The notes beneath the pieces are model-generated. The model worked only from the letters and a program-made list of their open reading frames with translations. It was not told where the DNA came from and did no database searches. A program made the position numbers and the translations under genes. From Eledone cirrhosa (lineage: Eukaryota), in contig OZ024742.1 in NCBI GenBank assembly GCA_964016885.1, forward strand, positions 250,418,001 to 250,482,000: DNA of 64,000 bases. Direction: 5' to 3'. Shown in pieces: positions 33,771-34,406 of this stretch (within the stretch, counting starts at the first letter, position 1; each line of letters opens with the position of its first letter).

Positions 33771-34406
33771 ACGGAAAAAATGAAACGATATTTCATTTCC
33801 CACTCTTAGTACGGCTGTTACTTAAATATAAGTATGTACACGTACATACATATATGTATACCGACGTACAGTAGTATGTATATATATATATATATACATA
33901 CATGCACACATATATATATGCACGTATGGATTCACCGAACATTTATTATAATGCTCGGTGTGTTTGTAAACAAACATCCCGTATTAAGCCGTAGTGTCTA
34001 GCAACCACCGTTGCTCGTTTGTTCAACACTGACAAAGGAACGCTGTACTAGTTTCAAGCTTGTTAGCTATCGTCAGCAACGTATACCTTCCTGCCAGATT
34101 GTTGAACGTATATACTTACCTTATGCATATTAACGGCTGAGTAGCCCAATATGCATATCGAGTGGGTTAATCGGCCGGGTGCACCGAAAACGATAAACGG
34201 AAAAAATGAAACGATATTTCATTTCCCACTCTTAGTACGGCTGTTACTTAAATATAAGTATGTACACGTACATACATATATGTATACCGACGTACAGTAG
34301 TATGTATATATATATATATACATACATGCACACATATATATATGCACGTATGGATTCACCGAACATTTATTATAATGCTCGGTGTGTTTGTAAACAAACA
34401 TCCCGT
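33771..34406 (-). mobile_element. Retrozyme-like family B: 1.5 tandem copies of a 426-bp non-coding unit with an HHR
   Basis: ACGGAAAAAATGAAACG at 33771 and 34197; left end in (TA)n; other copies at 44335-44890 and 53331-53690. Confidence 0.85.
34040..34082 (-). ncRNA. Minimal type I hammerhead ribozyme, family B
   Basis: Reverse complement ACGTTG-CTGACGA-TAGC(TAACAA)GCTT-GAAA-CTAG-TA^CAGCGT; palindromic CTAG stem III. Confidence 0.9.

Follow-up and report, generated by a model that had tools for sequence, protein, structure and literature searches.

What kind of element is a 426-bp unit that recurs both head to tail and in opposed orientation, by which enzyme is it moved, and from which form of RNA is it copied? 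The question is raised by the window, the whole stretch of 64,000 nucleotides of Eledone cirrhosa DNA that was analysed (contig OZ024742.1, positions 250,418,001 to 250,482,000), in which the first-pass annotation had recognised three copies of a retrozyme-like family, here called family B. A BLASTN search with positions 33771-34406 confirmed the three copies, and the tandem periods of 426 and 433 bp given for copies 1 and 2 were borne out. Copy 1 (33771-34406, minus strand) belongs to the youngest subfamily and consists of one "tail" arm with 1.5 units, running through unit 215-426 and then 1-426; its minus strand, read from window 34196 to 33771, defines the unit numbering 1-426. The full 426-nt unit (33771-34196, minus strand) has 38% GC and is highly structured, and it ends in a 52-nt tail (33771-33822, minus strand; 56 nt with the TTAT target overlap) with a terminal hairpin inside. 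The short end site of copy 1 corresponds to unit 374 (window 33823, minus strand) and the long end site to unit 426/430. A (TC)n(TA)n target tract (33676-33770) adjoins the 3' end, while the 5' junction (34407-34437) consists of a 12-nt insert resembling fragments of the unit, for which we infer a templated origin, followed by (AT)n. Copy 2 (44329-44887, plus strand) is an older tail arm, 91% identical, with unit ends at 44454 and 44887. In copy 3, a long arm (about unit 80-348; 53332-53647, minus strand) with an intact core at 53599-53605 has lost its 3' end at about unit 348, where sequence of another family, Family A, is joined, and it faces a short opposed tail arm of about 40 nt (unit 389-430; 53648-53689, plus strand) that is followed by (TA)n. 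The inverted arm that had been described is present in copy 3, whereas copy 1 is without any. As claimed, the copies share a terminus adjoining (TA)n: TTTCATTTTTTCCGT has five exact occurrences, and each outer end abuts (TA)n. Up to two mismatches, six matches were found in the window against 0.2 expected, a number reached in 0 of 100 shuffles.

Each unit carries a predicted type I hammerhead, as had been stated, but the core of copy 2 is mutated to TTGACGA (C3U). In copy 1 the motif lies at about unit 115-157 (34040-34082, minus strand), read from the sequence with support from covariation. Its stem I is ACGUUG/CAGCGU, its core CUGACGA (CTGACGA at window 34070-34076, minus strand), its stem II AGCU/AGCU over U.U at 10.1/11.1 with a GAAA loop, and its stem III comprises 2 bp within the palindrome ACUAGU. 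Cleavage is predicted after GUA at unit 151 (window 34046). In the fold, the hammerhead occupies the tip of an extended stem I (34019-34110, minus strand), 6 of whose 18 pairs show two-sided changes across subfamilies. The motif is, as the paired changes indicate, under structural constraint despite the lack of any Rfam match in the window at gathering thresholds. In an alignment of 10 hand-picked sequences from four subfamilies, including the distant homologue family C, 11 of 31 pairs had changed on both sides, more than in all 500 shuffles and all slid controls (a control that ignores relatedness), and 90% of cells pair; core positions vary by 1.3% against 2.7% elsewhere. In an isolated 61-mer the active hammerhead fold is not the minimum-energy fold (z -0.8). 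The whole unit folds with a z of -8.7, and better on the hammerhead strand than on the antisense strand (circular folds of -148 and -120 kcal/mol, respectively; shuffles -98.5 +/- 5); with the AT-rich block removed, it remains about 6 SD below shuffles. For hammerheads with a short palindromic helix III, cleavage has been described as dependent on a second copy (Cervera and de la Pena 2014, PMC4209133).

Across the 3.0-Gb genome, a 33-nt hammerhead core pattern gave 23,622 exact matches and its reversed control none. The first 100 of these matches fell into 59 clusters, 38 with a single hammerhead and 21 with two or more, and all 11 clusters among them with both strands were arranged head to head; extrapolated from 59 clusters per 100 core matches, the total comes to roughly 14,000 insertions. 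The subfamily of copy 1 is very young, because 41 of the 42 matches listed for a 241-nt piece of copy 1 were full-length at 100% identity (with only 40 out of 840 candidates scored); similarity in other subfamilies is 70-95%. The unit measures 420-433 nt, with up to about 540 nt in diverged subfamilies, and arrays reach 13 or more units, as in L011, where the 13 or more units are near-identical. The units of the array in L012 are identical except for one (4899-5322), which aligns at only 80%; its differences concentrate in unit 150-295 and may reflect an internal inversion. Contigs from sequencing runs of three organisms contain the unit, and in run X24 it is far shallower than in X19 relative to an adjoining abundant repeat, by contig depth, which is no measure of expression.

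The arrangement of the arms was analysed in 112 loci of 7-10 kb, all from one contig, comprising 12 top matches, 40 loci picked for a long end, 20 for a short end and 40 for the hammerhead core, so that three of the four sets were selected by end or score. The inverted state is the usual paired state of the family: of 60 uncut head-to-head pairs, 43 combined a long arm with a short one (ending at about 426 and about 374, respectively), one was long with long, one short with short, and 15 had a damaged end. This upholds the tie to PLE-type integration that had been drawn from the single inverted copy. In the hammerhead-sampled set, 44 of 58 arms stop at one of the two sites, and 36 of these 44 run into (TA)n; both outer flanks are (TA)n in 36 of the 43 long-short pairs. 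Genome-wide, exact junctions between an end and (TA)n numbered 409 for the long and 1306 for the short end, each pattern fitting only some subfamilies, against none for reversed-pattern controls. The two fixed 3' ends are 52-56 nt apart, and at both the overlap with the target amounts to 3-5 TA letters. At most loci (TA)n masks any target-site duplication; the dimer in L170 stands between direct repeats of 9 bp. The arms stop at different fixed sites and their flanks differ, so an artefact of assembly was rejected. Family-B copies carry the two-ended footprint of a PLE. Descriptions of PLE copies include tandem and inverted 5'-truncated parts with a tail on one end (Craig 2021, PMC8557442), and in vitro a PLE protein cuts and extends both strands, starting reverse transcription at two internal sites of the RNA, the tail being the sequence between them (Frangieh 2024, PMC11167929).

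How the two arms arise was approached through their lengths, centres and variants. In 16 of 41 distinct pairs (two duplicated pairs removed), neither arm is contained in the other; the longer arm may be either the long-end or the short-end one, and solo arms of both kinds occur in the hammerhead-sampled set (7 short-end, 4 long-end). The 41 pair centres comprise 13 with overlaps of 1-7 nt, 13 with inserts over 3 nt, 8 near-blunt joins and 7 longer palindromic overlaps, and several of the inserts are copies of unit sequence from elsewhere. In 23 of the 38 pairs with diagnostic sites (41 listed), the arm majorities are identical at all sites compared, and in most of the remaining compared pairs the arms differ at one or two. 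The scarcity of long-long and short-short pairs, together with the subfamily haplotype that the arms share, points to one RNA and two enzymes, although two reverse transcriptases working in succession along one template would be expected to leave the same patterns. A different origin of the second arm would be fold-back, that is, self-priming as proposed for Penelope (Arkhipova 2013, PMC3846280), target-primed reverse transcription accounting for the first arm alone, and later deletion of the palindrome centre and local unequal exchange for the asymmetry and the arrays. Haplotypes common to both arms agree with such an origin, and arm-length correlation and near-symmetric centres are also compatible with fold-back followed by central deletion: arm lengths correlate with a rho of 0.47 (n=41; 0.28 and not significant without the top-match set), and 8 of 43 centres are near-symmetric against 1.3 expected, several of them at local palindromes. 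It is quite improbable nonetheless, as it is at odds with the mutual non-containment of arms, with a longer arm of either kind, with the existence of solo short-end arms and with the extension of both strands from two start sites in vitro (Frangieh 2024, PMC11167929). Judging from the arms themselves, it is quite likely that both ends were primed on one RNA.

The refutation proposed for the retrozyme reading had been that in long copies the unit is always attached to an RT ORF, as a truncated pseudo-LTR, and that no unit-length RNA exists; the test for attachment found a direct ORF junction in none of 15 candidate associations. Where a family-B hammerhead has a PLE ORF on the same strand at most 2.5 kb upstream, at least 8 TA units lie between them in 15 of 15 cases, while in the control, Family A, 0 TA units do so in 7 of 7 and the hammerhead follows 197-237 nt behind the ORF. 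The six loci L011, L143, L144, L145, L164 and L170 were considered as ORF-attached copies and rejected as nested insertions. Among 63 unpaired arms no common upstream body was found except family-B sequence and the mirror arm of one locus. The absence of an ORF from the unit itself was verified on the circularised unit, where all six frames are closed and the longest ATG ORF has 55 codons; the RT plus GIY-YIG ORF of EN+ PLEs was not found in it. Comparison of the unit with 65 loci of two Hydra-type coding families returned only 22-nt matches at chance level and nested insertions, and comparison with the 3' region of Family A no similarity outside masked TA runs. It is accordingly very improbable that the unit is no more than a truncated pLTR, the end repeat of an unsampled coding PLE: besides the missing ORF junctions, upstream body and similarity, the unit stands head to tail with itself up to 13 or more times. 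On the side of a truncated pLTR, most hammerheads of the genome may be such ends, that of Family A being one, and the sample comprised 112 loci of the roughly 14,000 insertions, tested for ORFs with about 17 PLE queries that were drawn from the sampled loci themselves. The lack of ORF junctions and of a shared upstream body supports the earlier reading of an ORF-less, retrozyme-like element mobilised by a PLE, and a non-autonomous element of this kind is, from its sequence and its insertion pattern, very probable.

As to the template, a cut linear monomer as the usual form was ruled out: the arms read across the cleavage site, as often as five times or more, and their 5' ends show no accumulation at that point (4 of 139, with 3.6 expected). 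Variants private to single insertions bear on the remaining forms. With 19 common subfamily variants excluded, 24 variants were shared by all covered units of an insertion (one of them at a duplicated locus), and 10 of these were A>G, against 27 of 312 singletons (Fisher p 5e-5). On the hammerhead strand, A>G exceeded T>C by 64 to 38 overall (p 0.017) and by 10 to 3 among the fixed variants only (p 0.09). The 5' neighbour was U or A at all eight positions, in a unit that is itself 62% AT. U or A as the 5' neighbour of the edited site is the preference of ADAR. The A>G enrichment among fixed variants is as would be expected if one edited RNA unit was copied repeatedly, and in L097, A248G is present in 9 of 9 segments across both arms; an edit-like change in all units of both arms would be most simply accounted for by repeated copying of one circle. 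Other arms are mixed: L058 joins units of two subfamilies, and L022, L045 and L068 vary between units. In L096 (1682-6429) a 10-unit arm alternates two unit types with about 10 differing sites, and the short arm has both, which suggests a dimeric template or a higher-order repeat. Hammerhead cleavage is not required in vitro, where uncut RNA was the main template (Frangieh 2024, PMC11167929), and because of this and of the mixed-unit arms L058, L096 and L022, multimeric templates probably occur too. The same two observations would suit a template consisting as a rule of the uncut linear multimeric transcript of an array, copied by the same PLE machinery with two-ended priming while the hammerhead stayed mostly idle; the weak hammerhead geometry is in keeping with it, and the lack of 5' ends at the cleavage site fits equally well. 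This is unlikely, since the presence in every unit of both arms of private variants, among which A>G is enriched, would need a single-unit bottleneck, copying of a linear multimer can only shorten arrays, yet L011 has its 13 or more near-identical units, and the hammerhead has been kept with compensatory changes across four subfamilies. A circular template is, on these variant patterns, somewhat favoured.

From its genomic copies we judge family B to be a metazoan non-LTR retrozyme that a PLE mobilises in trans. By its sequence it is such a retrozyme, with hammerhead, tandem units, matching GC content and no ORF, and by the pattern of its insertions it works like a non-autonomous PLE. The explanation that accounts best for the arms is likely to be an ORF-less hammerhead retrozyme inserted by a borrowed PLE enzyme that, working from the two sides of a break in a (TA)n tract, copies a single RNA, which is probably circular. 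Tandem arrays would be transcribed, and hammerheads, probably acting as dimers, would free units that are ligated into circles. A PLE RT/GIY-YIG dimer would bind the RNA and nick both (TA)n strands, and cDNA would begin at unit 430 on one side and at unit 374 on the other, with a TA overlap of 3-5 nt. Each RT would then pass the ligation site for a variable number of rounds, and the two cDNA ends would be joined through microhomology or short templated inserts; failure of one side would leave a single arm, as in copies 1 and 2 of the window. A more specific reading, held tentatively and at slightly less than an even chance, is that the insertions are a fossil record of a PLE RT dimer travelling round one small, A-to-I-edited RNA circle simultaneously from two fixed starts, one at each side of a (TA)n break. 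If true, the insertions would be evidence from the genome that animal retrozymes are copied by a rolling circle, a step long proposed, and the tandem and inverted structure of PLEs in general would be explained as well.

For metazoan retrozymes, copying of circles by an RT, probably that of a PLE, has been proposed (Cervera and de la Pena 2020, PMC7229834), and retrozymes have been tied to PLE pLTRs by homology and co-occurrence in a study that favours local amplification by unequal crossover for the arrays (Li, Clavereau and Pollet, bioRxiv 10.64898/2026.07.22.740005). Family B resembles the metazoan non-LTR retrozymes described there in its tandem units of a few hundred nt, each with one type I hammerhead, in a GC content below 50% and in the lack of an ORF. 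It differs from the published descriptions in its head-to-head arrays, two fixed ends and (TA)n targeting, and in U.U at 10.1/11.1; furthermore, circles and cleavage have been established by experiment for published retrozymes, whereas those of family B are predictions from sequence. The word "inverted" has no occurrence in the main text of Cervera 2020 (PMC7229834), and a literature search of main texts returned no description of two-armed retrozyme arrays or of family B. With EN+ PLEs as described by Craig 2021, Arkhipova 2013 and Frangieh 2024, the family has in common that arms are 5'-truncated, that the inverted arm sits at the 5' end and only one end has a tail, that targets are AT-rich or (TA)n and that a hammerhead lies upstream of the ends; with Family A, a coding PLE of the same genome, it shares the two-end pattern. 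Unlike the EN+ PLEs reported, it has no RT/endonuclease ORF, its whole element is a small unit repeated in both arms, and its tail is 52-56 nt rather than 30-40. Chlamys PLEs offer a parallel in MRC1 and the like, non-coding PLE derivatives with multicopy head-to-tail insertions (Craig 2021, PMC8557442). As characterised in that paper, these resemble their autonomous partners at the 3' end, while no partner similarity was found for family B, and Chlamys elements are mostly without hammerheads, unlike family B. The inverted junction and the microhomology of family B also recall twin priming of L1, from which family B differs in that its start sites are fixed and its arms span several units. In L1 twin priming, two primers at one break produce an inverted junction with microhomology, the second primer being placed at variable internal sites of a linear RNA.

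In the literature as cited, the return of animal retrozymes to the genome by way of a circle and a PLE enzyme is so far a proposal, and the formation of tandem and inverted PLE ends is only partly worked out. With a young and abundant non-coding substrate of 426 nt that has two base-exact starts and a known target, both can be tested directly, in vitro as well as through sequencing of populations. Family B is, in addition, a sizeable source of new palindromes and double-stranded RNA.

One candidate source of the partner enzyme is Family A, which is young, bears a hammerhead and has a tail of similar length. It forms the pLTR, at the 3' end, of a young coding PLE that by the motifs given in Craig 2021 is of the Neptune type, with frames of up to 863 aa; its pieces lie at window 28793-29419, 46388-46931, 47884-48098 and 52948-53331 and at L099:3900-6579. 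The ORF has an RT match with an E of 7e-4 plus, at its C terminus, a GIY-YIG-like region with a CX4CX2C linker, and its own hammerhead follows the ORF at a distance of about 200-240 nt, while two fixed ends delimit a tail of about 58 nt; 150 scored matches stand at 97-100%. The agreement in tail length (58 vs 56) is weak evidence for a partnership, because in family C, a homologue of family B, the tail measures about 74 nt. A TATCGnTTTC-like word near the starts of both families was set aside, as it accompanies the short site in Family A and the long site in family B. A related family at about 61% protein identity is laid out identically.

Degraded PLE ORFs are present at window 36098-38027 and 41785-43614, and intact 830-aa relatives of the second, together with a related 713-aa family, were found in L173-L187. 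These Hydra-type families, of 830 and 713 aa, have the RWR, DKT and CxCX5C motifs as in section 11 of Craig 2021 (PMC8557442). No canonical hammerhead was found by descriptor in 15 full-length loci of the two families, and the small ACUC/GAGU hairpin was by eye not evident at the ends of family B. The 830-aa family forms tandem arrays of about 6.65 kb. Pfam names the PLE ORFs of the window poorly, and an identity as "Naiad" was rejected, the endonuclease being C-terminal. In L170 (5480-8200; G000:C1:18482500-18492400), a PLE ORF has a family-B dimer, with its 9-bp target duplication, in antisense orientation within its asparagine-rich linker. The inverted arm of the host PLE repeats a part of the dimer, which a later PLE insertion seems to have taken along.

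Further hammerhead-bearing elements occur beside family B. Its distant homologue, family C (L080:2290-3215; L011:1-480), reaches a local score of 115 against 24 +/- 3 for shuffles, has a G-C pair at 10.1/11.1 and shows the same two-armed layout. A distinct 310-bp hammerhead tandem family is likewise arranged head to head (L017:6300-7900; L145:5300-7400), and at least three more hammerhead-bearing element types, some of them fold-backs, are found in (TA)n in the window (10567-10769/19289-19489, 20567 and 24813-25063). Nested minisatellites of 32/40 bp and 39 bp occupy window 22571-24402, with an internal inversion near 23040-23274. The window also contains a stop-free frame of 1090 aa of a non-LTR retrotransposon (60068-63340, minus strand), with endonuclease, RT and zf-RVT by Pfam, and degraded relatives of it at 54673-57876 and 1337-2123.
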